Below are positions 51 through 58,266 of a DNA stretch of 58,266 nucleotides, piece after piece. How positions within the stretch are numbered: the first letter of the stretch is position 1; each line of letters begins with the position of its first letter. The stretch is from an uncultured Bdellovibrionales bacterium (GTDB taxonomy: Bacteria > Patescibacteriota > Minisyncoccia > Moranbacterales > UBA1568), in contig CAZCNN010000004.1 in the NCBI GenBank assembly GCA_964500505.1, positions 1-58,266 on the forward strand. The letters run 5' to 3'. The notes beneath the pieces were generated by a model. That model was not told the DNA's origin, searched no databases, and was given only the letters and a program-made list of their open reading frames with translations. A program made the translations under genes and the position numbers.

Positions 51-101
51 CGGGGCATAGTATAGTGGTAGTACGAGTGGTTTGGGACCATTTAGTCTCG
101 G
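51..101 (+). pseudogene. tRNA-Pro(UGG) 5' fragment (acceptor 5' strand, D arm, anticodon arm, T-stem 5' strand); no 3' acceptor strand
   Basis: Positions 49-101 are identical to 242-294 of the intact tRNA-Pro. The match ends after CTCGG at the start of the T-loop. Downstream sequence cannot pair with CGGGGCA. Confidence 0.75.
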
Positions 102-148
102 GTTCCCCGCCTGCAACGCTTATGCGTAGCATTGCGGGCAGGGATTCC
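101..148 (+). repeat. GGTTCC-[hairpin]-CAGGGATT module occupying the T-loop position of the tRNA-Pro fragment
   Basis: Hairpin CCCGC-C-TGC-A-ACGC-TTAT-GCGT-A-GCA-TT-GCGGG (about 12 bp). 43 of 46 nt are identical to 58022-58067. Confidence 0.7.
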
Positions 149-2556: not shown

Positions 2557-2627
2557 GCGAGAGTAATACAATGGTAGTATGCCAGCCTTCCAAGCTGGAT
2601 ACGCGGGTTCGATTCCCGTCTCTCGCT
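2557..2627 (+). tRNA. tRNA-Gly (anticodon UCC)
   Basis: GCGAGAG/CTCTCGC acceptor, U73, anticodon loop CT-TCC-AA, T arm GCGGG-TTCGATT-CCCGT. Confidence 0.93.
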
Positions 2628-2642
2628 CAAGTGTTATATCAG

Positions 2643-2680
2643 CCCCGCCTACATCCCGCTTTGGCGGGAAGTAGGGCGGG
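2643..2680 (+). repeat. Long GC-rich hairpin in the tRNA-Gly(UCC) trailer
   Basis: CCCGCCTAC-AT-CCCGC-TTTG-GCGGG-AA-GTA(G)GGCGGG: outer 9 bp with one bulge plus inner 5 bp. Confidence 0.6.
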
Positions 2681-2782
2681 TAAACTTCCAAGCTGAAGAT
2701 GGGGGTTCCTTGCCCGACACACTGACGAAAGTCTGTGGGCGGGGATTTTTACCCGTCCTCTGGCGGGCCGGTCGCCCGCTCA
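2675..2782 (+). repeat. tRNA-Gly-like 3' half (anticodon loop to ...CCCGCTCA) carrying a hairpin insertion in the T-loop
   Basis: 2685-2709 CTTCCAAGCTGAAGATGGGGGTTCC parallels tRNA 2587-2610 CTTCCAAGCTGGATACGCGGGTTCG. After about 31 inserted nt it resumes GGGGATTTTTACCCGTC and ends GCCCGCTCA (tRNA: GATTCCCGTC...TCTCGCTCA). GGCGGGTAAA (2675-2684) can pair with TTTACCCGTC (2748-2757). Confidence 0.55.
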
Positions 2783-2793
2783 AAAAGGTAAAA

Positions 2794-2818: not shown

Positions 2819-3096
2819 TTTATGGGTGAGGACTAGAAAACTTTCCCTTTTCATTTCCACAGATGCCACCGAACATCCCTGACTCGTTCTGCCGAACAGG
2901 GAGCTCACTGGTCGAGACCGTCCCTACTCACTCGACTGTTACCGGCTCACTCATCACGGATGCCTGCCCGCCTTCGGAGGGTTACCGTTTGACATCCGAC
3001 GGAAAGAAAAGGAAAAGTGTTTCCATGAAACTAACTCGCAGATTCTCCCTCCCAAGAATCCTCTCGGGCGAATTTTGAGCCGAAAGTTTACCCGCC

Positions 3097-3124
3097 TCAG
3101 GAGGGCAGGTCTTTTTGTGAAAAC
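3097..3124 (+). terminator. Terminator-like hairpin plus T-run in an ORF-poor region
   Basis: ACCCGCC-TCAGGAG-GGCAGGT (one C.A mismatch) followed by CTTTTTG. Confidence 0.35.
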
Positions 3125-3167
3125 AAAAAGTTTCGGATCAAACTTCAACAAAAATCTCGCTGGCCTG

Positions 3168-3190
3168 CCTGCCGGTAGGCAGGGATTTTT
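3168..3190 (+). terminator. Terminator-like hairpin CCTGCC-GGTA-GGCAGG followed by GATTTTT
   Basis: Perfect 6-bp stem. The 18-mer at 3163-3180 is the exact reverse complement of 10501-10518. Confidence 0.4.
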
Positions 3191-7513: not shown

Positions 7514-8767
7514 CTATTTCTTGTCAGTGACTTCAGCTTGGATGAGGGCCATGGCTTCGGCTACCGTCTGACTCCCGAGTGGGCCATCTCCTCGTTTTTC
7601 GAGCGATACCGTGTTGGCCTCGATTTCCTTGTCGCCGACGACCATGAGGTAGGGGATCTTTTGCATCTTGGCACTGCGGATGCGCTTACCGAGGGATTCA
7701 TCTGAGGCATCGAGTTCGGCTCGGAGACCGGCCTGGAGGAGTGACTCGACAACACTCTTCCCATACGCGTGGTGGCCACCCCCGACTGGGAGGACGACGA
7801 CCTGGACCGGAGCGAGCCAAGTCGGGAACGCACCCGCATAGTGCTCGATAAGCACGCTCATAAAACGCTCAATAGATCCCATAATGGCACAGTGAATCAT
7901 GGCGATGCGTTCCTTTTCTCCTTTTTCATTGATACAGGTGAGGTCAAAACGGTCAGGAAGGTTGAGATCGAGCTGGATGGTTGCTACTTGCCATTCACGA
8001 CCAAGAGAATCAGTAGCCATGAAGTCAATTTTTGGACCATAGAGTGCTGCCTCACCTAGACCATCGAGGTATTCAACTTTTTCTTTTTTGAGGATACTTT
8101 CGATTTGATCCTCGGCATCCTTCCAGATTTCTTTTGTTCCTAGGTATTTTTCAAAGTGTGTCGGATCATGACGAGAAAAGCGTACCATGAGAGTCGTGAA
8201 ACCAAAGGTCGTGTAAAAGGTGCGGATAATATCCCATACCTTGAGCATCTCTTCTTCAATCTGGTTCCGACGGCAAAACACATGGGCATCGTCCTGAGTA
8301 AGGGAGCGGACACGGGCAAGGCCATTTAATTCTCCGGATTGCTCATCTCGATAGCACATCGTGGTGTTGGCGTAGCGCTGGGGGAGCTCACGGTAACTGA
8401 ATGGACGACGAGCGTAGATTTGTGTGTGATGTGGGCAATTCATGGGCTTCATAGCAAACTCGTAGCCTTCACGAGTGGTGATACGAAAGAGTTCATCCTT
8501 GAATTTATCCCAATGCCCACTTTTTTCGTACAGATCTTTCTTGGTAATGTGGGGGATTTCTACTCGTTCAAAACCATGACGTTTACGTAGTTGCCAGACG
8601 TATTCATCAAGAAGGTTGCGGATCAGAGTACCGCGCGGTGTCCACAGAGGGAGTCCTGAACCAACGAGGTCAGAAAAAGTAAAGAGGTCGAGCTCTTGGC
8701 CAAGTCGGCGGTGGTCATTTGGGGCGAGGATAGATGGGTCTTCGCTAGTAATTGGTTGGTCAGCCAT
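7514..8767 (-). CDS. thrS: Threonyl-tRNA synthetase, catalytic plus anticodon-binding domains only
   Basis: DHRRLGQELDLFTF, class II core (FRITTREGYEFAMKPMNCPHH, YRDEQSGEL, RVRSLTQDDAHVF), C-terminal anticodon domain (VVVLPVGG). At 417 aa the N-terminal TGS/editing domains are absent. Confidence 0.92.
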   Translation of the reverse strand: MADQPITSEDPSILAPNDHRRLGQELDLFTFSDLVGSGLPLWTPRGTLIRNLLDEYVWQLRKRHGFERVEIPHITKKDLYEKSGHWDKFKDELFRITTREGYEFAMKPMNCPHHTQIYARRPFSYRELPQRYANTTMCYRDEQSGELNGLARVRSLTQDDAHVFCRRNQIEEEMLKVWDIIRTFYTTFGFTTLMVRFSRHDPTHFEKYLGTKEIWKDAEDQIESILKKEKVEYLDGLGEAALYGPKIDFMATDSLGREWQVATIQLDLNLPDRFDLTCINEKGEKERIAMIHCAIMGSIERFMSVLIEHYAGAFPTWLAPVQVVVLPVGGGHHAYGKSVVESLLQAGLRAELDASDESLGKRIRSAKMQKIPYLMVVGDKEIEANTVSLEKRGDGPLGSQTVAEAMALIQAEVTDKK

Positions 8768-8865: not shown

Positions 8866-8959
8866 AGTTCTTTGTCCCCTTTCTTGGCTCCTCCTGGCAC
8901 AGACCCCTGTGCTTTCCACGTCCCGTTGCACCCTCGCGTGCTCGGGACGTCCTTTTTTT
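8866..8959 (+). ncRNA. Candidate small RNA (about 95 nt) with a C/U-rich 5' region and an intrinsic terminator
   Basis: Plus-strand terminator ACGTCCCG-17nt-CGGGACGT followed by CC and T7 (8918-8959), although both flanking genes are on the minus strand. Internal hairpin GCACAG-ACCC-CTGTGC. The 5' segment CUUUGUCCCCUUUCUUGGCUCCUCCUGG contains an anti-Shine-Dalgarno-like CUCCUCC. Confidence 0.4.
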
Positions 8960-10367
8960 ACTTCTTTTCTTCAACTTCCTGAATGGTCAGGTGGAGATCT
9001 TTTTTGAGTTCGGTGGTTTGATCAAAGGTTTTACCATCTTTGGTCTTGATGTGTACCGAGACGGGGACAGTGCCGACACCTGATTGCTTTTGAATGAGAA
9101 GCTTGTAGTCGTTCTCGGTAACCGTCTCAGGGAGTTCATACTTAAGCATTCCCTGTGTTTCACCACCGATAAGCACATCGACAAAGACGCCGAAATACGT
9201 TTTGCCAAAGGCTTCATCCGTGAGGGGTGAGCCGACGAGTTTACGCTCAAGGAGTTTGGCTCCCTTGGGGACATAGGCGCGGAGGTAGGTGTGGTAGTCG
9301 CTCGTCCGCCAGTCTCCATAGGCCGCCGTGTGCTTGTAGGTATAGAGGACGGTAGCAACTGGCTTTTCACCGGTGAAATCAACCGTGTAGTCAAGCGAGC
9401 GCCTCATGTAGTAGTCACTCTTGAGCGCCCCCATGTTGGCATCGACGAGCATAAGATAATCACCAGCCCAGTCCTCCGCTACCGAACCATCCCAGTGGAC
9501 ACTCTCGACAAGCGCCTGGAGATTGGGATCAGCAAACCAGAGCATGACATCGCGGTTCCGGAGTTCATTCTGGGTAAATTCGGCCAGTTTCGGGGCGTTC
9601 CCTACCGTGGCCACGCGGTTCATGATTTCGGCCGCAATCTTTTTCATGATGGCCTTGCGATTTTGTTTCAGTTCTGCTGGTACATCTTCACCGAGGTAGG
9701 CCCGTTCGACGCGCTCTTCGAGTTTGTAGGCGCCGTCATCACTCGTGTAGGTGTGAGAATCACCAGGGATTTTGATTGGTCCAGTCACCGCGAGGATGTT
9801 GTTGAAGACGTGGGAGTTGACCCCGATGACTGCATCAAACTTTTCTCGGCCACCTGAGAGACGGTAAAAATACTGGGCCTTTTCGGCGTTGGTCGGGAAG
9901 TCAGGGGAAAAGTTCGAGTCACGGAATTTCCAGTTTTTGAGCTGGAGCTTACGCTTGAACGGATAGGGCGGAGTAATCTTGGCCACGATACGCTGATCGA
10001 GGAGGTTGGCATCTTCGACGTAGGTCGAGACAACGGCGGCATTCTTGACTTTGACGATGGCATATTGGCCGAGGAAACCACCACCAGGACGGAGCTCATC
10101 AGCGTTTTGGAGGAGGATGAGGAAGACGCGAGTTTTGTCATCTTGCTTGGTAAGTTCAGTGACGAGCTGATTCACCACCTCGAGCTCTTTCTTGGTATCT
10201 TCGGCGATGGGGAGGAGTTTGGAGACTTTCTGGAGGATATTGAGCGAGCCGACGGCAAACTCGGTTTTGTGCTCCTTGGCGTAAAAGAACGTAAAGTAGC
10301 CCCCAATAGAGACGATAAGAACGACGACCAGGGCGATAATCCAGCCCTTAGTGAGGAATGCAGGCAT
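8958..10367 (-). CDS. DUF4012 domain-containing membrane-anchored protein
   Basis: LQNADELRPGGGFLGQYAIVKV signature and an N-terminal TM segment (WIIALVVVLIVSIGGYF). Start set at ATG 10367 (MPAFLTKGW), downstream of a minus-strand TATACT at 10396-10401. The longest ORF runs to 10424. Confidence 0.85.
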   Translation of the reverse strand: MPAFLTKGWIIALVVVLIVSIGGYFTFFYAKEHKTEFAVGSLNILQKVSKLLPIAEDTKKELEVVNQLVTELTKQDDKTRVFLILLQNADELRPGGGFLGQYAIVKVKNAAVVSTYVEDANLLDQRIVAKITPPYPFKRKLQLKNWKFRDSNFSPDFPTNAEKAQYFYRLSGGREKFDAVIGVNSHVFNNILAVTGPIKIPGDSHTYTSDDGAYKLEERVERAYLGEDVPAELKQNRKAIMKKIAAEIMNRVATVGNAPKLAEFTQNELRNRDVMLWFADPNLQALVESVHWDGSVAEDWAGDYLMLVDANMGALKSDYYMRRSLDYTVDFTGEKPVATVLYTYKHTAAYGDWRTSDYHTYLRAYVPKGAKLLERKLVGSPLTDEAFGKTYFGVFVDVLIGGETQGMLKYELPETVTENDYKLLIQKQSGVGTVPVSVHIKTKDGKTFDQTTELKKDLHLTIQEVEEKK

Positions 10368-10474
10368 GAGAATATAAAAAAAATTAGACCTTGCTAGTAT
10401 ACCAGAAAAGCCTTCCTCCCGCACCCTTTACGAGCAGAGCCAAAATACGTTACAATGGCCCTGCTGAGAAAAAA

Positions 10475-10542
10475 GCGGGTATAGTATAGTGGTAATACCC
10501 GCCTACCGGCAGGCAGGCGTGACCCCACCAGACCGTTAGAAC
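10475..10542 (+). repeat. tRNA-like 5' element plus CCTACCGGCAGG palindrome in the tRNA-Gly(CCC) leader
   Basis: GCGGGTA-TA-GTAT-AGTGGTA-ATAC mimics an acceptor strand and D arm, but also folds as an 8-bp hairpin GCGGGTAT/ATACCCGC. No anticodon or T arm follows. Confidence 0.55.
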
Positions 10543-10613
10543 GCGAGAGTAGTACAATGGTAGTACACTGGCTTCCCAAGCCAGGGACGCGAGTTCGATT
10601 CTCGTCTCTCGCT
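10543..10613 (+). tRNA. tRNA-Gly (anticodon CCC)
   Basis: GCGAGAG/CTCTCGC acceptor, U73, anticodon loop TT-CCC-AA, T arm GCGAG-TTCGATT-CTCGT. Confidence 0.93.
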
Positions 10614-10616
10614 CAA

Positions 10617-10675
10617 ATTGCGGTCAGGCAGGCAGGGATTTTTACCTGTCCTTTGGCGGGCTCTTTACCCGCTCA
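10617..10675 (+). repeat. tRNA-Gly(CCC) trailer element homologous to 2738-2782
   Basis: ATTGCGGTCAGG is shared with 58052-58063. GGCAGG-GATTTTTA-CCTGTC parallels GGGCGGG-GATTTTTA-CCCGTCC with an A-T to G-C compensatory change. It ends TACCCGC-TCA, complementary to GCGGGTA at 10475. Confidence 0.6.
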
Positions 10676-10680
10676 AATAA

Positions 10681-10715
10681 AACCGTCCCTTTATGGGGCG
10701 GTTTTGCTATTTTGC
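10681..10715. terminator. Terminator shared by the tRNA unit (+) and the convergent LTD gene (-)
   Basis: AACCGTCCC-TTTAT-GGGGCGGTT followed by TTGCTATTTTG. The stop codon of the minus-strand gene lies in the loop. Confidence 0.65.
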
Positions 10716-12664
10716 CAATTGTTGAGGGAGGAGTTCCAGTGAATGAAGAGGTGTTTGAACCAAAGGAGAAGGGGCGGGTCAGACGGTGGTGGCGTAATTG
10801 GAGTGGACACTGGTTCGAGTTCGGTCGTGCTCGCCCCGAGGACGGCCGGGTCGCCAAGGGCTTCCTCAGGAATATCCTCTGGAAGTGCTTGGGGCACAAG
10901 CTCTACTTCAGTCGTAGGCGGAGCCGCCGGTTCGGGTGAGGCTACTGGGTCCGTAGGTGTCGGTAGTGCACTCACAACGGGTAGAGGCTCTTCATTTACT
11001 ACTTCATCAGTGTTGCCTTCTTCTGTATCAGGCGCTTCAGTCTCATCCCATTCCCAACGCTTACCTTTTTCCTTGCGGTACACGACATCCTCTGCCACTG
11101 ACTTCGAGAGTTTGTACTTGATATCTTGGAGGACTTTGCCATCGGGGGCACGGAGCTCGAGCTTGCCTTTTTGGTTGGGGAGGGTGAAGAGGGAAAATTC
11201 TCGCGTGAGTTTTCTCTCAGAGTGGGGCGGGATGATAAAGCTCTCACGGATGGGATGATTGGAGAGTTTCTTCCAGCCGGAGGCGATACCGTAACCTTTG
11301 AGATCAATCGCTTTCTTCCCGCGGTTTTCAATCATGAGCCACTCTCCATCACTATCTTTGCCACTCGGGTTGGGGACGAGCGCCGTGATACGGATATTGG
11401 GCTTGGGGAGGGAGGCGATTTTGAGAGCAAAGGTCTCCAAGACATCATCGGATCCATCGGTCGTCGTGAGTGTAACCTGGTAGGTGCCGTTCTTTTCGTA
11501 ACGATGTTCCGTTTTTTCTTTGTAACTTTTGTGACCATCACCAAAGTCCCAGGTGTACTTGAGGGTGCTGCCGTCACTGTCTTTGCCCCGAGCATCAAAG
11601 GTGATAGCTATGCCCCGGTAGCCTTTCTTCGGTACCTTCTCCTTGGTCTCAGGGAGAGTGTTGACGATATTTAGTTGGCCAGGCGTCGGCGTGCCCCCAC
11701 GCCAGCTCTTTCCGGTGAAATTGAGTGAGACGCCCTCCTTGGTTTTGGCATAGGTCATGCTATCGACGAGGAGACCGCCCGCATCAAAGAGGGAGAGCGT
11801 TTCGTCAGTATTGTTGAGCGAGAGTTTGGAGACGCTCCGCTCCAAGACAAAATAGCCAAGAGCCGAGATAGGGGAACTCGGAGGAAAAGTGTACTCGCCG
11901 GTTTTCGAGTCATCACGGAGGCGAAAGCTAGTGAGGTCGATTGGTCCATCACTGGGATTGTAGAGTTCAATAAACTCCGCCGACTCATCGCCTCTTGGAT
12001 TCGCGAACACCTCATTTATACGAACCGGACTCAGGGAAGAGAGCGCTGAATCAGGAGCAACAGATGGTGTTTCGAGGTAGACCTCACCTCGGCTGTTGGT
12101 GGGTGTGGGAGCTACATCGGTGGCCCAGCCGAGAGTGACCGGGTCGCGGGTGAGACTTTTCCCGGCACCAGGATTCTGAAGGAGCGGCGTCTCGGGCGTG
12201 AAGGGAGCGCCGGTACCCCATGCGACGCTGTCGATGAGGATGCCACTCACACCTGACTCCGTAAAGAGGCCAATACTATTATTATCAGCGAGCGCTGATG
12301 AGCCCCCTTCGACATCAGCGTAGGGGAGGGCGTAGCGACCAGCACTGTGCGCGAAGAGCCAGTAACCTTCCGCTGGTACGGTAGTGCCGGCGCCAAAGAC
12401 TTTGATCGAACTCTCACTCCCACTACTCGTGCGTCGACGGAGTTGCATGCCCGAGAGATCGATGGAGGCGTCGGTAAGATTACGAATCTCGATATATTCG
12501 TCCGTGACAGATTCTCCTTTCGTCTGGACCTCACTCAAGATGAGCGGAGGTGTCGCTCCGTGCGAGGGAGAAGATAGAAATAGGAAGGGCAGACATCCGA
12601 GTGCGAGAGCACTTCGGAAGAAAACACACTTCATAGGGAAGAAGAATGGTAATACCTCTTTCAT
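10691..12664 (-). CDS. Secreted lamin-tail-domain (three LTD copies) plus PKD-domain protein with a Pro/Thr/Glu-rich C-terminal region
   Basis: LTD-like segments (ILSEVQTKGESVTDEYIEIRNLTDASIDLSGMQL; VRINEVFANPRGDESAEFIELYNPSDGPIDL; ITALVPNPSGKDSDGEWLMIENRGKKAIDL). PKD signature KYTWDFGDGH...GTYQVTLTTTD. Signal peptide present. ATG 12664 preferred over TTG 12688. Confidence 0.8.
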   Translation of the reverse strand: MKEVLPFFFPMKCVFFRSALALGCLPFLFLSSPSHGATPPLILSEVQTKGESVTDEYIEIRNLTDASIDLSGMQLRRRTSSGSESSIKVFGAGTTVPAEGYWLFAHSAGRYALPYADVEGGSSALADNNSIGLFTESGVSGILIDSVAWGTGAPFTPETPLLQNPGAGKSLTRDPVTLGWATDVAPTPTNSRGEVYLETPSVAPDSALSSLSPVRINEVFANPRGDESAEFIELYNPSDGPIDLTSFRLRDDSKTGEYTFPPSSPISALGYFVLERSVSKLSLNNTDETLSLFDAGGLLVDSMTYAKTKEGVSLNFTGKSWRGGTPTPGQLNIVNTLPETKEKVPKKGYRGIAITFDARGKDSDGSTLKYTWDFGDGHKSYKEKTEHRYEKNGTYQVTLTTTDGSDDVLETFALKIASLPKPNIRITALVPNPSGKDSDGEWLMIENRGKKAIDLKGYGIASGWKKLSNHPIRESFIIPPHSERKLTREFSLFTLPNQKGKLELRAPDGKVLQDIKYKLSKSVAEDVVYRKEKGKRWEWDETEAPDTEEGNTDEVVNEEPLPVVSALPTPTDPVASPEPAAPPTTEVELVPQALPEDIPEEALGDPAVLGASTTELEPVSTPITPPPSDPPLLLWFKHLFIHWNSSLNNWQNSKTAP

Positions 12665-12735
12665 ATCATAATTCTTGTGATTCGACAATGGGAATCTTGT
12701 GAAAAATATGCTACACTCAAACAGGAAACAAAAGT

Positions 12736-13515: not shown

Positions 13516-14289
13516 ATGGGACTCTTTGGACTCATCATGACACTCACCATCCTTGGGCTCGGCATGAGCTACTTCTACTTTGGTATGGGGCCGACGTCAC
13601 TCACGATTGAGAACGATACTCCCGCGCCGGCAGGTCTCGATCTTTATAATGATTTGAAGGAACAAGCGACTGATATCAAAGAGACCGAAGAAGAACGGGT
13701 AGAGGCCGAGATTGCTGCTCTTGAAGAAAATTTGAAACCAGAATCTTTGATTCAACCGAACGTAGCTGATCCTGCCCGCAGTGCTACGACAAGCGTTGCA
13801 GGCGGGGAAATGGAGGCCGAGAAAGAAGTTGATATTGTTGATCGTCTGATGAGCACCGGTTTTGCTGTGCCAGCGAAGGCGCGCACTATTGATACGATTG
13901 TCCTTCATTCGTCGTATAACTCCTTGGGCGGAGACCCGTATTCAGTCGAGAAGGTCGTCGCTATCTACGAGAGCTATGGTGTGAGTGCTCATTACCTCAT
14001 CGACCGGAGTGGCACCATATACCGCCTTGTCGCGGACCAGAATATCGCCTATCATGCTGGGGCGAGCAAGATGCCTGATGGTCGCAAGGATGTGAACAAC
14101 TTTTCTATCGGGATCGAAATCATGAATACAGAGGAGACAAGCTATACCAAGGCCCAGTACGAAGCGGTTAATACCCTTGTCGCTACCCTCAAGAAAAAGT
14201 ACACTATCAAAAACATCGTCGGCCACGCTGACATCGCCCCCGACCGCAAATCCGATCCCTGGAACTTTGATTGGAAGAAGTTGAAGTGA
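13516..14289 (+). CDS. N-acetylmuramoyl-L-alanine amidase (Amidase_2/PGRP fold) with an N-terminal TM anchor
   Basis: IDTIVLHSSY...VSAHYLIDRSGTIYRLV...AYHAG...NFSIGIEIMN...IVGHADIAPDRKSDPWNFDW. ATG 13516 lies exactly 7 nt after TATAAT, so the transcript is probably leaderless. Confidence 0.85.
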   Translation: MGLFGLIMTLTILGLGMSYFYFGMGPTSLTIENDTPAPAGLDLYNDLKEQATDIKETEEERVEAEIAALEENLKPESLIQPNVADPARSATTSVAGGEMEAEKEVDIVDRLMSTGFAVPAKARTIDTIVLHSSYNSLGGDPYSVEKVVAIYESYGVSAHYLIDRSGTIYRLVADQNIAYHAGASKMPDGRKDVNNFSIGIEIMNTEETSYTKAQYEAVNTLVATLKKKYTIKNIVGHADIAPDRKSDPWNFDWKKLK

Positions 14290-15895: not shown

Positions 15896-19306
<3,411 letters not shown>

Positions 19307-57668: not shown

Positions 57669-57718
57669 GCGGGCTGTAGCCCGCCAGAGGTTTACCTGCC
57701 ATAGGCATGGCGGGTAAA
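57669..57718 (+). repeat. Two perfect hairpins forming the tRNA-Pro(GGG) leader
   Basis: GCGGGC-TGTA-GCCCGC, then TTTACCTGCCAT-AGGC-ATGGCGGGTAAA (12 bp), an inverted pair of the TTTACC(C/T)GCC core. Ends 5 nt before the tRNA. Confidence 0.65.
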
Positions 57719-57723
57719 TATAT

Positions 57724-57794
57724 CGGGCTGTAGTATATCGGCAGTACGCATGCATGGGGTGCATGTAGGCCGGGTTCGATTCCCGGCAGCCCGA
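57724..57794 (+). tRNA. tRNA-Pro (anticodon GGG)
   Basis: CGGGCTG/CAGCCCG acceptor with C1-G72 and A73, anticodon loop AT-GGG-GT, T arm CCGGG-TTCGATT-CCCGG. Confidence 0.92.
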
Positions 57795-57818
57795 CTACGT
57801 AGACAAAGGCTGGGGGAT

Positions 57819-57843
57819 AAAAAGCAATCTGCTTTGCTTTTTA
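57819..57843 (+). terminator. AT-rich terminator after tRNA-Pro(GGG)
   Basis: AAAGCAA-TCTGCT-TTGCTTT followed by a T-run. Confidence 0.55.
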
Positions 57844-57844
57844 T

Positions 57845-57985
57845 GGGCAACCCAAAGAACCGTCCTGGTTCCTTGGATAGGTTGCCCGGGAACTTGAGTT
57901 CGAGTTCCCCGACCACTTCTCGCTGTAGCGAGAAGTGAGATGGGCAGGCCCGCCAGAGGCGGACAGGGATTCTGCTTACCCCGAC
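57845..57985 (+). repeat. Array of four consecutive near-perfect hairpins containing T-arm-like and GGTTCC/CAGGGATT cores
   Basis: H1 57845-57887 (8 + 8 bp). H2 GGGAAC-10nt-GTTCCC (57888-57909). H3 CACTTCTCGC-TGTA-GCGAGAAGTG (57914-57937). H4 CCGCC-AGA-GGCGG (57950-57962). The array then continues ACAGGGATTCTGCTTACCCC. Confidence 0.6.
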
Positions 57986-58021
57986 AATGACGATGAAAAA
58001 TTCCCCGGAGCATGAGGCCTA

Positions 58022-58074
58022 GGTTCCCCACTTGCAACGCTTATGCGTAGCATTGCGGTCAGGGATTTTTACCC
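58022..58074 (+). repeat. Second copy of the GGTTCC-hairpin-CAGGGATT module seen at 101-148
   Basis: 43 of 46 nt identical to 101-146. Continues TTTTTACCC as in the tRNA-Gly trailers. Confidence 0.7.
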
Positions 58075-58266
58075 ATCAGGCAGTAGCCTATCACTTCGAG
58101 GGCTCGGCCGAAGACGTTGGGCCCGTGGCATTTGTCCGGGGTGACCGCGTGGTGTTTCACTCGAGTGTCCCACAGGGCATCGTCACCCAGTTCGGCGTCG
58201 ATGAGGAGCCACTCATTGTCCTCGAATACGTCGAGTCGGCTGCGACTACCCTTGTGTGTCGCGACC
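58059..58266 (-). CDS. 3' end of a GC-rich ORF running off the window (hypothetical)
   Basis: Hand translation of the minus strand gives ...WLLIDAELGDDALWDTRVKHHAVTPDKCHGPNVFGRALEVIGYCLMGKNP-stop (stop codon is the complement of 58059-58061). About 63% GC on one sampled line. Not in the supplied ORF track because it has no start codon in the window. Confidence 0.35.
   Translation of the reverse strand, partial: VATHKGSRSRLDVFEDNEWLLIDAELGDDALWDTRVKHHAVTPDKCHGPNVFGRALEVIGYCLMGKNP

Follow-up and report, generated by a model that had tools for sequence, protein, structure and literature searches.

A complete tRNA-Gly(CCC) gene that sits between a tRNA-like 5′ piece and a matching tRNA-like 3′ piece raises the question of what the two outer pieces are. 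The locus lies at 10427–10706 in a stretch of 58,266 nt (contig CAZCNN010000004.1 of assembly GCA_964500505.1; hereafter the window, meaning the whole stretch that was analysed) from an uncultured bacterium deposited as Bdellovibrionales and placed by GTDB in the Patescibacteriota, Moranbacterales, a lineage of ultra-small bacteria. The original prediction, made from the letters alone, left three answers side by side, namely a leader–trailer processing stem, a disrupted older tRNA gene or a split tRNA-like RNA. The second is now strongly supported, since relatives carry an intact version of the older gene at the same locus. With a probability that we put at roughly 85%, the flanks would be the split ends of a resident tRNA-Gly gene, inside which a second tRNA-Gly(CCC) is nested as its replacement. 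We refer to the resident tRNA-Gly, with the acceptor stem GCGGGTA...TACCCGC, as type G, and to the inner tRNA-Gly, with the acceptor stem GCGAGAG...CTCTCGC, as type E.

Contigs L026–L039 were fetched via homologues of the neighbouring DUF4012 protein, whose identity grades from 96% down to 60%, and the gene order is kept across all of them. In five (L026, L027, L029, L033 and L036) a single intact type-G tRNA-Gly(CCC), of sequence GCGGGTATAGTATAGTGGTAATAC-GTGACCTTCCCAAGGTTA-AGCGA-GGAGTTCGATTCTCC-TTACCCGC-T, lies between the DUF4012 gene and the lamin-tail/PKD (LTD/PKD) gene. Its first 24 nt are those of window 10475–10498 (24/24; L026, L027), its positions 24–29 in raw numbering (CGTGAC) are those of 10518–10523 (6/6; L026), and its last 17 nt (L026 positions 59–75) match 10661–10677 at 15 of 17 positions. 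A −10 box TACAAT, in the form gcTACAATrgc, is present in every syntenic relative. In most of these, wherever nothing is inserted between, it precedes the 5′ end of type G by 18–19 nt, and the outer 5′ piece of the window sits at exactly this distance from the box. Because the syntenic intact gene matches both pieces behind the same −10 box, the flanks can be assigned to the two ends of the resident type-G gene. Homology at a syntenic position thus strongly supports that the outer pieces are, by origin, a relic of the orthologous resident tRNA gene, and the inner gene would be another allele, type E, that replaced the resident gene and uses its promoter and terminator. The nested architecture was also found in the independent assemblies L010, L024 and L037–L039.

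The 5′ side of the locus can be followed almost base by base. A promoter-like site recovered by a consensus scan on the plus strand (−35 TTTACG, 18-nt spacer and −10 TACAAT; 10427–10456, with the −10 at 10451–10456), presumably that of the old resident gene, lies in a region identical at 30 of 31 positions between the window and L037, the closest relative. The outer 5′ relic (10475–10498, plus strand), GCGGGTA-TA-GTAT-AGTGGTA-ATAC, comprises the 5′ acceptor strand and the complete D arm of type G, standard positions 1–25. It is followed, at relic position 25/26, by a GC-rich palindromic micro-insert, CCGCCTACCGGCAGGCAGG (10499–10517, with a boundary ambiguous by 1 nt), which is missing from the intact type-G genes and occurs at the same site in L037 (18/19) and L030 (CTGCCTGCCGTGGCAGGC). 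The next bases, C-GTGACC (10518–10524), are relic positions 26–31, the 5′ strand of the old anticodon stem, kept also in L037, L030 and L035. The original prediction had seen no anticodon or T arm behind the 5′ piece; the anticodon loop is indeed gone, but the anticodon-stem strand (C)GTGACC survives past the insert of 19–20 nt. Where the loop was lost (10525–10542), the window has the degenerate start of a 31/32 micro-palindrome (CCCACCAGACCG) and then the short leader of the inner tRNA, TTAGAAC; at this place L037 has CCCGCC...GGCGGGTAAA, a second palindrome and CTTCCTAG, so that the window carries a deletion of ~55 nt relative to it.

The inner type-E tRNA-Gly(CCC) is intact (10543–10614 on the plus strand, or 10543–10615 with the CA that follows it; acceptor GCGAGAG/CTCTCGC), with a discriminator U at 10613 and no encoded CCA. 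Behind it comes the trailer AATTGCGGTCAGGCAGGCAGG (10616–10636), with CAGG in triplicate, which corresponds to the 3′ portion of a ...ATTGCGGTCAGG-type micro-palindrome standing before GATT; the segment is not kept in L037, and its ATTGCGGTCAGG-GATTTTTACC junction is found again at 58052–58073. By analogy with a relic at 2744–2747, the GATT at 10637–10640, invariant in an alignment of four 3′ relics, represents standard positions 57–60, the old T loop's 3′ half. A 20-nt palindromic micro-insert, TTTACCTGTCCTTTGGCGGG (10641–10660), again missing from the intact type-G genes, occupies relic position 60/61, a site likewise filled at window 2748–2767, in L037, in the outermost relic of L016 and in L028. 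The outer 3′ relic (10661–10675) consists of CTCTT (positions 61–65; 10661–10665), TACCCGC (66–72; 10666–10672) and the discriminator T with CA (10673–10675), and is identical to L037 at 12 of 13 positions. The outer acceptor strands 10475–10481 and 10666–10672 are perfect complements over 7 bp, followed by the discriminator, and both pieces are present as originally described. An intrinsic terminator hairpin with a flanking T run (10678–10706; terminator scan, strand undefined) ends the tRNA unit and also adjoins the stop codon of the convergent LTD/PKD gene. ARAGORN and Rfam call the inner gene only (RF00005, 70.4 bits), in agreement with the complete tRNA-Gly(CCC) originally recognised between the pieces; the outer pieces are detected as a tRNA by neither program and match no other Rfam family. 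They form no complete cloverleaf, and because the anticodon loop and the 5′ half of the T arm, including the 5′ T-stem strand, are gone, the relic in the window cannot be a tRNA.

The trailer had also been described as homologous to a second one at 2738–2782, and the similarity extends over 47 nt at 83% identity (2738–2784; repeat family D12). The two trailers are homologous because the sister tRNA-Gly(TCC) locus, 2557–2784, had the same fate. Here an intact type-E tRNA-Gly(TCC) (2557–2628, plus strand; ARAGORN, Rfam 71.3 bits), the replacement gene, has taken the place of the first ~20 nt of the type-G gene, and the rest of that gene, from the D arm to the 3′ end, follows as a relic (2630–2784, plus strand; 51/55 versus the intact L026 gene). 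When relics were aligned to intact genes with long gaps and with the inner tRNA masked, the result for the TCC locus was clean: relic blocks at 2634–2643, 2685–2708, 2744–2747 and 2768–2784 are separated by inserts at 31/32 (2644–2684, 41 nt), 56/57 (2709–2743, 35 nt) and 60/61 (2748–2767, 20 nt). The block 2744–2747 corresponds in the alignment to TTC|GATT in the intact TCC gene of type G, and the stem at 2700–2772 contains two G-G mismatches. Both Gly isoacceptors of the window carry E-type acceptor stems, and both of those in the close relatives L026 and L027 carry G-type ones; this contrast amounts to a concerted switch, for which co-adaptation with a synthetase, escape from a tRNA-targeting nuclease and gene conversion are candidate causes, the first two as possible selective drivers.

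Relatives show the nested arrangement in several states, complete and broken. Complete nested pairs occur in the window (also L010 and L024), in L037–L039 and in L032. A 5′ relic (positions 1–39) with a leader and the inner gene, and with no 3′ relic nearby, is found in L030 and L035, a 5′ relic with the inner gene in L009, the inner gene with a 3′ relic carrying the 60/61 insert in L028, and the inner gene alone, lacking both flanks, in L031. The relics of L030, L035 and L009, for which automatic long-gap alignments are unreliable, were read by eye, and no distant 3′ half of a split gene was found within the fetched parts of these three. At the TCC locus of L016 and L006 the inner gene is inserted exactly between positions 40 and 41 of the type-G gene. 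L016 has three layers (minus strand, about 1120–1480 in locus coordinates), in which a type-E TCC relic encloses a type-G relic that in turn encloses an intact type-E gene; both insertions are in the 3′ strand of the anticodon stem, the inner one at exactly 40/41, and micro-palindromes are found in the D loop and at 31/32, 56/57 and 60/61. L019 and L005, which fall in other lineages of CPR bacteria (candidate phyla radiation), are nested too, and their inner genes have 15-nt complementary leaders and trailers; complementarity of leader and trailer around the inner gene was found in L019, L032 and L005, and L019 may have a 5-nt target duplication, CAAGC.

The outer genes of these relatives are not working tRNAs, to judge from their degenerate stems: besides the mismatched stem at window 2700–2772, the T stem of L016 contains a T-T mismatch and the acceptor stem of L019 is bulged. 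Wherever it is readable (L016, L006, L019, L030 and L035) the outer anticodon equals that of the intact inner gene, so that the outer gene is redundant.

The inner genes themselves differ. The inner tRNA-Gly(CCC) at L037:742–813 and that at window 10543–10614 have nearly the same D and anticodon arms, with one compensatory pair in the anticodon stem, and differ in the acceptor and T stems (GCGAGAG/GCGAG in the window, GCGGGTG/AGGAG in L037). According to ARAGORN, the L037 tRNA joins G-like acceptor and T stems to E-like D and anticodon arms. The inner tRNAs of the window and L037 are mosaics, which suggests that the domain made of the acceptor and the T arm was exchanged between alleles.

With the 5′ part of the inner tRNA as query and one genome per species, 23 loci were retrieved, mostly from Candidatus Moranbacteria (Moraniibacteriota, CPR/Patescibacteria); the 3′ half, searched against metagenomes, returned only two loci, one of them from the window's own species. 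The bins of L002, L003, L007, L009, L010, L018 and L019 are variously labelled "uncultured Bdellovibrionales" or "Gammaproteobacteria", labels that look wrong because gene content and synteny group at least L009 and L010 with Moranbacteria. Across the 408 kb of fetched contigs, a partial self-copy of at least 12 nt lies within 400 nt of 16 of 62 tRNAs, in a sample that is biased, most loci having been retrieved via tRNA-Gly or its neighbour.

The micro-inserts that interrupt the CCC relic at 25/26, 31/32 and 60/61, all stem-loop borders, belong to one family of GC-rich palindromes of 19–20 nt, which is multi-copy, occurs in either orientation, nests and is mostly found in non-coding DNA. In one orientation the sequence is CCCGCC-NNNN-GGCGG-ACAGG, in the reverse CCTGYCCGCC-NNNN-GGCGGG, often with TTTA or TAAA at one end. 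Inserts at 31/32 were found in L006, L009, L016 (two layers), L030, L035 and L037, those at 56/57 in L006, L016, window 2709–2743 and a tRNA-Pro fragment at window 101–146, and those at 60/61 in L016, L028 and L037 as well as at the two window sites already given. Copies in the window are at 106–138, 1410–1445, 2644–2684, 2748–2767, 2962–2980, 3088–3108, 10499–10517, 10641–10660, 13771–13806, 57680–57714 and 57949–57967, and further copies are present in L006, L009, L016, L028, L030, L035 and L037. Some copies are away from tRNA loci (1410–1445, 2962–2980, 3088–3108, 3164–3190 and 13771–13806); the last of these, 36 nt long, in frame and homologous to the reverse complement of the insert at 106–142, lies within the variable linker of an N-acetylmuramoyl-L-alanine amidase gene. 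As multi-copy, short, imperfect palindromes, the micro-inserts resemble repetitive extragenic palindromic (REP) sequences and REPINs (PMC3116915, PMC3733652) and the tiny mobile repeats known from cyanobacteria. Unlike REP/REPIN, they are concentrated at a few positions of tRNA relics and lack the GTAG/CGTC end tag of the two main superfamilies, ending instead in TTTA/TAAA or CCTG/CAGG, and no RAYT-type transposase was identified among the window open reading frames (ORFs) scanned.

How would such a locus work? Because the old promoter and terminator still bracket it, a single transcript of ~250 nt is expected, comprising the outer 5′ relic, the inner pre-tRNA and the outer 3′ relic. The inner tRNA would be set free by RNase P cleavage at its 5′ end and by trimming and CCA addition at its 3′ end; what remains of the relic would be leader and trailer by-products, maybe with a secondary role. 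In this way the CCC locus would behave like a tRNA gene whose leader and trailer are long and structured. As for its origin, the most likely route would be the insertion into the resident gene of foreign or element-borne DNA with its own tRNA-Gly, after which the host would have become dependent on the incoming tRNA copy and the accompanying DNA would have been lost. Alternatively, DNA from a related strain may have entered by homologous recombination on one side and illegitimate recombination on the other. This second route would fit window 2557–2784, because the type-E gene starts there exactly where the type-G gene of the relatives starts, directly after the same upstream ORF.

Several observations weigh against the explanation of the flanks as a split resident gene with its replacement nested inside. 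Transcription and processing are deduced from sequence only. Neither the window nor the neighbourhood of the locus in relatives yielded an integrase, transposase or phage gene, and an element-borne origin is for this reason without direct support; Pfam and PHROGs searches for such genes or phage hallmarks were negative for ~30 window ORFs and for the variable neighbour genes of L028, L030 and L035. The distribution of states, moreover, departs from the tree of the neighbouring genes: the window's own clade holds both intact and nested loci. The gene is intact in L026 and L027, which are close to the window, whereas insert positions shared with the window, and with L037, turn up in L030 and L035, which are more distant. 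Recurrent events or a lateral spread of the disrupted allele are favoured by this departure.

Lastly, a purely neutral relic does not fit the conservation of the flanks, which do not show neutral decay. Four-fold sites of the DUF4012 gene are saturated among species-level relatives (0.27–0.51 identical) and reach 0.59 between the window and L037, yet between the same two sequences the 5′ piece is identical at 23/24 positions, the 25/26 insert at 18/19, GTGACC with the start of the next insert at 11/12, GATT with the 60/61 insert at 22/24, and positions 61–73 at 12/13. Pooled without the promoter, flanks and inserts are identical at 86 of 92 positions (93%; P ~ 7e-14 versus 0.59, and P ~ 1e-5 versus the ~0.75 of adjacent intergenic DNA), and the relics of L030 and L035 agree at 51 of 57 positions versus 0.43 at four-fold sites. 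The interior is different in L037, with extra palindromes, the anticodon-loop remnant CTTCCTAG and another leader and trailer, and the leader of L030 and L035 is similar to that of L037. The flanks are probably retained either by selection on the leader and trailer or by homogenisation at the DNA level. Such a frame could have been selected for the start of transcription, for leader/trailer structure or as a recombination site, or it could have been homogenised by gene conversion among the repeated copies; it is also possible that nested alleles spread laterally, or that they arise recurrently and recently.

Within the nested-replacement explanation, a more specific origin deserves consideration. 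Anticodon- and T-loop borders are classic crossover sublocations of tyrosine integrases. The locus could be the footprint of a phage or integrative element that carried its own tRNA-Gly, entered the anticodon or T-loop region without rebuilding the gene, and later lost everything except the now-essential tRNA, with the micro-inserts as debris of recombinase sites; we regard this as possible, with the odds somewhat against it. The insert positions are at the expected borders, the gene content between tRNA-Gly(CCC) and the LTD gene differs among relatives, and many tRNAs of the fetched contigs have displaced 3′ fragments 100–160 nt downstream. Against this, no integrase or phage gene was seen at any locus examined, the type-E tRNA pattern had no match in a viral contig collection, and in L016, L006, L019 and L032 the outer gene is complete and the insert measures only ~82–113 nt, a size that decay of a larger element would hardly yield.

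A precedent exists in tRNA-dependent lysogeny, in which a phage integrase enters a host tRNA gene via a core of ~10 bp without rebuilding it and the loss is made good by a tRNA of matching isotype from the phage (PMC10865867). As in that system, the resident gene of the window is interrupted and rebuilt at neither junction, and the disrupted and the inner gene are of the same isotype, both being tRNA-Gly(CCC). The differences are that the known case concerns a prophage with a tyrosine integrase in an actinobacterium, whereas here ~140 nt (the tRNA and ~65 nt of flanks) are found in a CPR bacterium, no integrase is seen and the nesting recurs in layers. The tRNA fragments at the ends of genomic islands (Islander, PMC4383910; PMC9897764) are similar in that partial copies adjoin an intact tRNA gene and the breakpoints are in or beside the anticodon and T loops. 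Islands, however, rebuild the gene and leave one displaced 3′ fragment, whereas here 5′ and 3′ fragments of another allele bracket a complete gene.

A second possibility adds to the relic origin rather than replacing it. The old ends and the palindromes might have been co-opted and kept by selection because they help the inner pre-tRNA, be it as a processing or stability stem, as protective 5′ and 3′ hairpins or as a released small RNA. In the minimum-free-energy fold of 10470–10680 the outer acceptor strands pair and the inner cloverleaf forms (−81.9 kcal/mol, z = −3.6), and in a joined construct the outer strands fold at −14.6 kcal/mol. The slow evolution of flanks and inserts relative to four-fold sites, and the retention of the 5′ relic between L030 and L035, agree with such a function. 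Each outer acceptor strand, however, has a local competitor made by an insert: GCGGGUAU/AUACCCGC (−11.7 kcal/mol), which uses the first bases of the 25/26 insert, for the 5′ strand, and GGCGGG/CCCGC for the 3′ strand, since the 60/61 insert either forms its own hairpin, CCUG(U)CC/GGCGGG, or pairs through its 3′ arm with the 3′ acceptor strand. The outer stem is identical in the window and L037, so no covariation is seen, and conserved flank complementarity with covariation, the mark of a leader–trailer stem, was not found. The replacement tRNAs of L030, L035 and L009 keep the 5′ piece only, that of L028 the 3′ piece only and that of L031 neither, and they do without the missing flanks. A processing stem is thus conceivable but dispensable, and we consider co-option doubtful.

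The original prediction had based its argument for selection on RNA structure on a compensatory change, GGCAGG/CCTGTC versus GGGCGGG/CCCGTCC in the second trailer, in a hairpin around the GATTTTTA loop. This loop turned out to be GATT of the old T loop followed by TTTA, the start of the 60/61 insert, and TTTACCTGTCCTTTGGCGGG, which had been taken for a hairpin loop with an arm, is the inserted palindrome itself. Across the four aligned 3′ relics, 90% of the cells of the proposed hairpin are paired, with one double-sided change, a result equalled by 115 of 500 shuffles. The alternative hairpin formed by the palindrome of the insert itself, CCYG(T)CC/GGCGGG, is incompatible with the proposed one; it is 96% paired, also with one double-sided change, and fits equally well. 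Upstream of its GATT, L037 has AGTAAGTATTCTTAA, in which the palindrome is present and the 5′ arm of the proposed hairpin is missing. We therefore rejected this hairpin as a conserved structure, and the argument built on the compensatory change falls with it, even though the flanks evolve more slowly than neutral sites.

In rRNA operons, leader and trailer form processing stems, and functional tRNA spacers such as 3′ETS(leuZ) are known. The CCC locus shares with them that the flanks of a stable RNA pair and are predicted to be co-transcribed, and that a spacer may have a role. It differs from the rRNA stems in that the pairing spans 7 bp, comes from an old acceptor stem, is dispensable in relatives and provides no long duplex of the RNase III type.

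A functional interrupted or split outer tRNA, whose RNA would lose the inner tRNA and the palindromes and have its halves joined, is very improbable. Its exon-like pieces are well conserved, and removing the inserts leaves a complete outer gene in L016, L019 and L032. Intron positions outside the canonical site in Thermoproteales resemble 25/26, 31/32, 56/57 and 60/61, a likeness that serves as a lead only. The outer gene of the window, on the other hand, lacks its anticodon loop and 5′ T-stem strand, the T or acceptor stems of L016, L006, L019 and window 2630–2784 are degenerate, and one half is wholly lost in some relatives. By inspection, no bulge-helix-bulge could be drawn at the 31/32, 56/57 and 60/61 borders in the window, L016 and L006, where the palindrome abuts the insert junction without 3-nt bulges separated by a 4-bp helix, and no tRNA splicing endonuclease was seen among the ORFs scanned within the 58-kb window. 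We therefore rejected an archaeal-type intron or split tRNA, as the outer genes are degenerate or redundant and form no bulge-helix-bulge. Short related insertions at several non-canonical positions are a trait shared with the archaeal split, multi-intron and tri-split tRNA genes and the permuted ones of Cyanidioschyzon (PMC4090602, PMC3978253). The archaeal disrupted tRNAs, by contrast, are functional and spliced at the bulge-helix-bulge by a dedicated endonuclease, whereas the genes described here are degenerate, redundant and bacterial. Chance resemblance or an assembly chimera, which the shortness of the complementary strands (7 nt) might suggest, can practically be discarded given 24/24 and 15/17 matches to an intact orthologue and five independent assemblies alike.

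The remaining window is core chromosome (rpoB/rpoC, ftsK, recA, gyrB, ftsA/ftsZ and ribosomal proteins) of even base composition. The neighbours of the nested locus, both on the minus strand, are the DUF4012 protein gene (8958–10367; Pfam) and the LTD/PKD gene (10691–12688; ORF list, Pfam). Between tRNA-Gly(CCC) and the LTD/PKD gene, contigs L026–L036 hold no gene, a DUF975 protein, a dCMP deaminase, CHAP and DUF3828 proteins, a metallophosphoesterase or eight small ORFs, a variable content that is typical of a tRNA-adjacent insertion hot spot; no integrase was detected among the variable neighbour genes scanned. A class II synthetase nearby, considered as a possible glycyl-tRNA synthetase, was identified as threonyl-tRNA synthetase (ThrRS; 7514–8767, minus strand). 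Its 417 aa align only to positions 171–564 of the ThrRS model, so that it is without the N-terminal region including the editing domain; the ThrRS proteins of L032, L033 and L036 have 578–580 aa and a tRNA_SAD domain. At gathering thresholds Rfam reported no family besides tRNA in the whole window, and at E ≤ 10 on 10380–10760 tRNA was again the only family, next to sub-threshold look-alikes of terminators or tRNAs; the rnk leader (25 bits), SpF41 and anti-hemB were dismissed as weak identities of this kind.

ARAGORN called four tRNA genes in the window, all on the plus strand and all confirmed by Rfam at gathering thresholds: the two tRNA-Gly genes, tRNA-Pro(TGG) (244–315) and tRNA-Pro(GGG) (57724–57795). 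Fragments accompany the tRNA-Pro genes too. Within 49–243, the first 53 nt of tRNA-Pro(TGG), as far as the 5′ T-stem strand, are found as an exact copy 193 nt upstream of the intact gene, and this copy continues as GGTTC-[palindromic insert 106–142]-GATTCCGA, a T loop split at 56/57; in L026, L028 and L031, 5′ tRNA-Pro fragments and a conserved block resembling an anticodon arm (GAGTGACTTG..GACCATTT) stand upstream of the intact gene. At the tRNA-Pro(GGG) locus (57670–58080), a 10-nt copy of the 5′ end of the gene (CGGGCTGTAG, 57670–57679) and nested palindromes are found just upstream, and two relics resembling a T arm with acceptor strand downstream. The first of these (57888–57990) ends in GATTCTGCTTACCCCGA-CA and holds the exact 19-mer CCCGCCAGAGGCGGACAGG; the second (58022–58075) is 93% identical to window 101–146 and continues with GATTTTTACC.

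In relatives, an insertion of 100–160 nt recurs after Gly, Leu and Pro tRNAs (L004:4907–5070, L027:9664–9820 and 17185–17360, L029, L031, L020:4308–4465 and, after tRNA-Pro, L016). Its order is a terminator, GGGAAT(C/T)GAA, two hairpins and a direct copy of tRNA positions ~55–73. Read as its reverse complement, GGGAAT(C/T)GAA matches T loop and 3′ stem in the local tRNA; this inverted copy therefore derives from the target rather than from an element.

As a rule, tRNA genes of bacteria are regarded as simple, stable units; known to interrupt them are group I introns and elements whose integration restores the gene. Full-text literature searches brought up no account of tRNA genes that are nested or disrupted in CPR bacteria, and a paper on rRNA insertions in CPR bacteria does not mention tRNA. 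The feature at 10427–10706 is real and now largely explained, and the wider pattern to which it belongs is one of recurrent nesting, site-preferring micro-palindromes and a slowly evolving frame. We tentatively propose, as a conjecture that we think less likely to hold than to fail, that Moranbacteria and some other Parcubacteria host an active, undescribed turnover of tRNA genes. In it, cassettes with a complete tRNA gene would enter the anticodon arm of the resident gene for the same isoacceptor, palindromes would enter fixed borders (25/26, 31/32, 56/57 and 60/61), and the onion-like shells would be kept as a frame for allele exchange, with the frame serving as promoter, structured leader and trailer, or recombination sites.

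Fragments of tRNA genes are known to be mis-called as genes (PMC9897764). The relics described here can likewise mislead tRNA annotation and searches for non-coding RNAs, and what looked like a structured trailer is gene debris with palindromic inserts. In this organism a live tRNA gene appears to sit inside the shell of its predecessor and to depend on the predecessor's promoter and terminator, an arrangement repeated in relatives in up to three layers. If an active, site-specific process is behind it, very small genomes with few copies of each tRNA gene would have a new way to replace tRNA genes and to exchange alleles horizontally, and the disrupted tRNAs of archaea would have a bacterial parallel.

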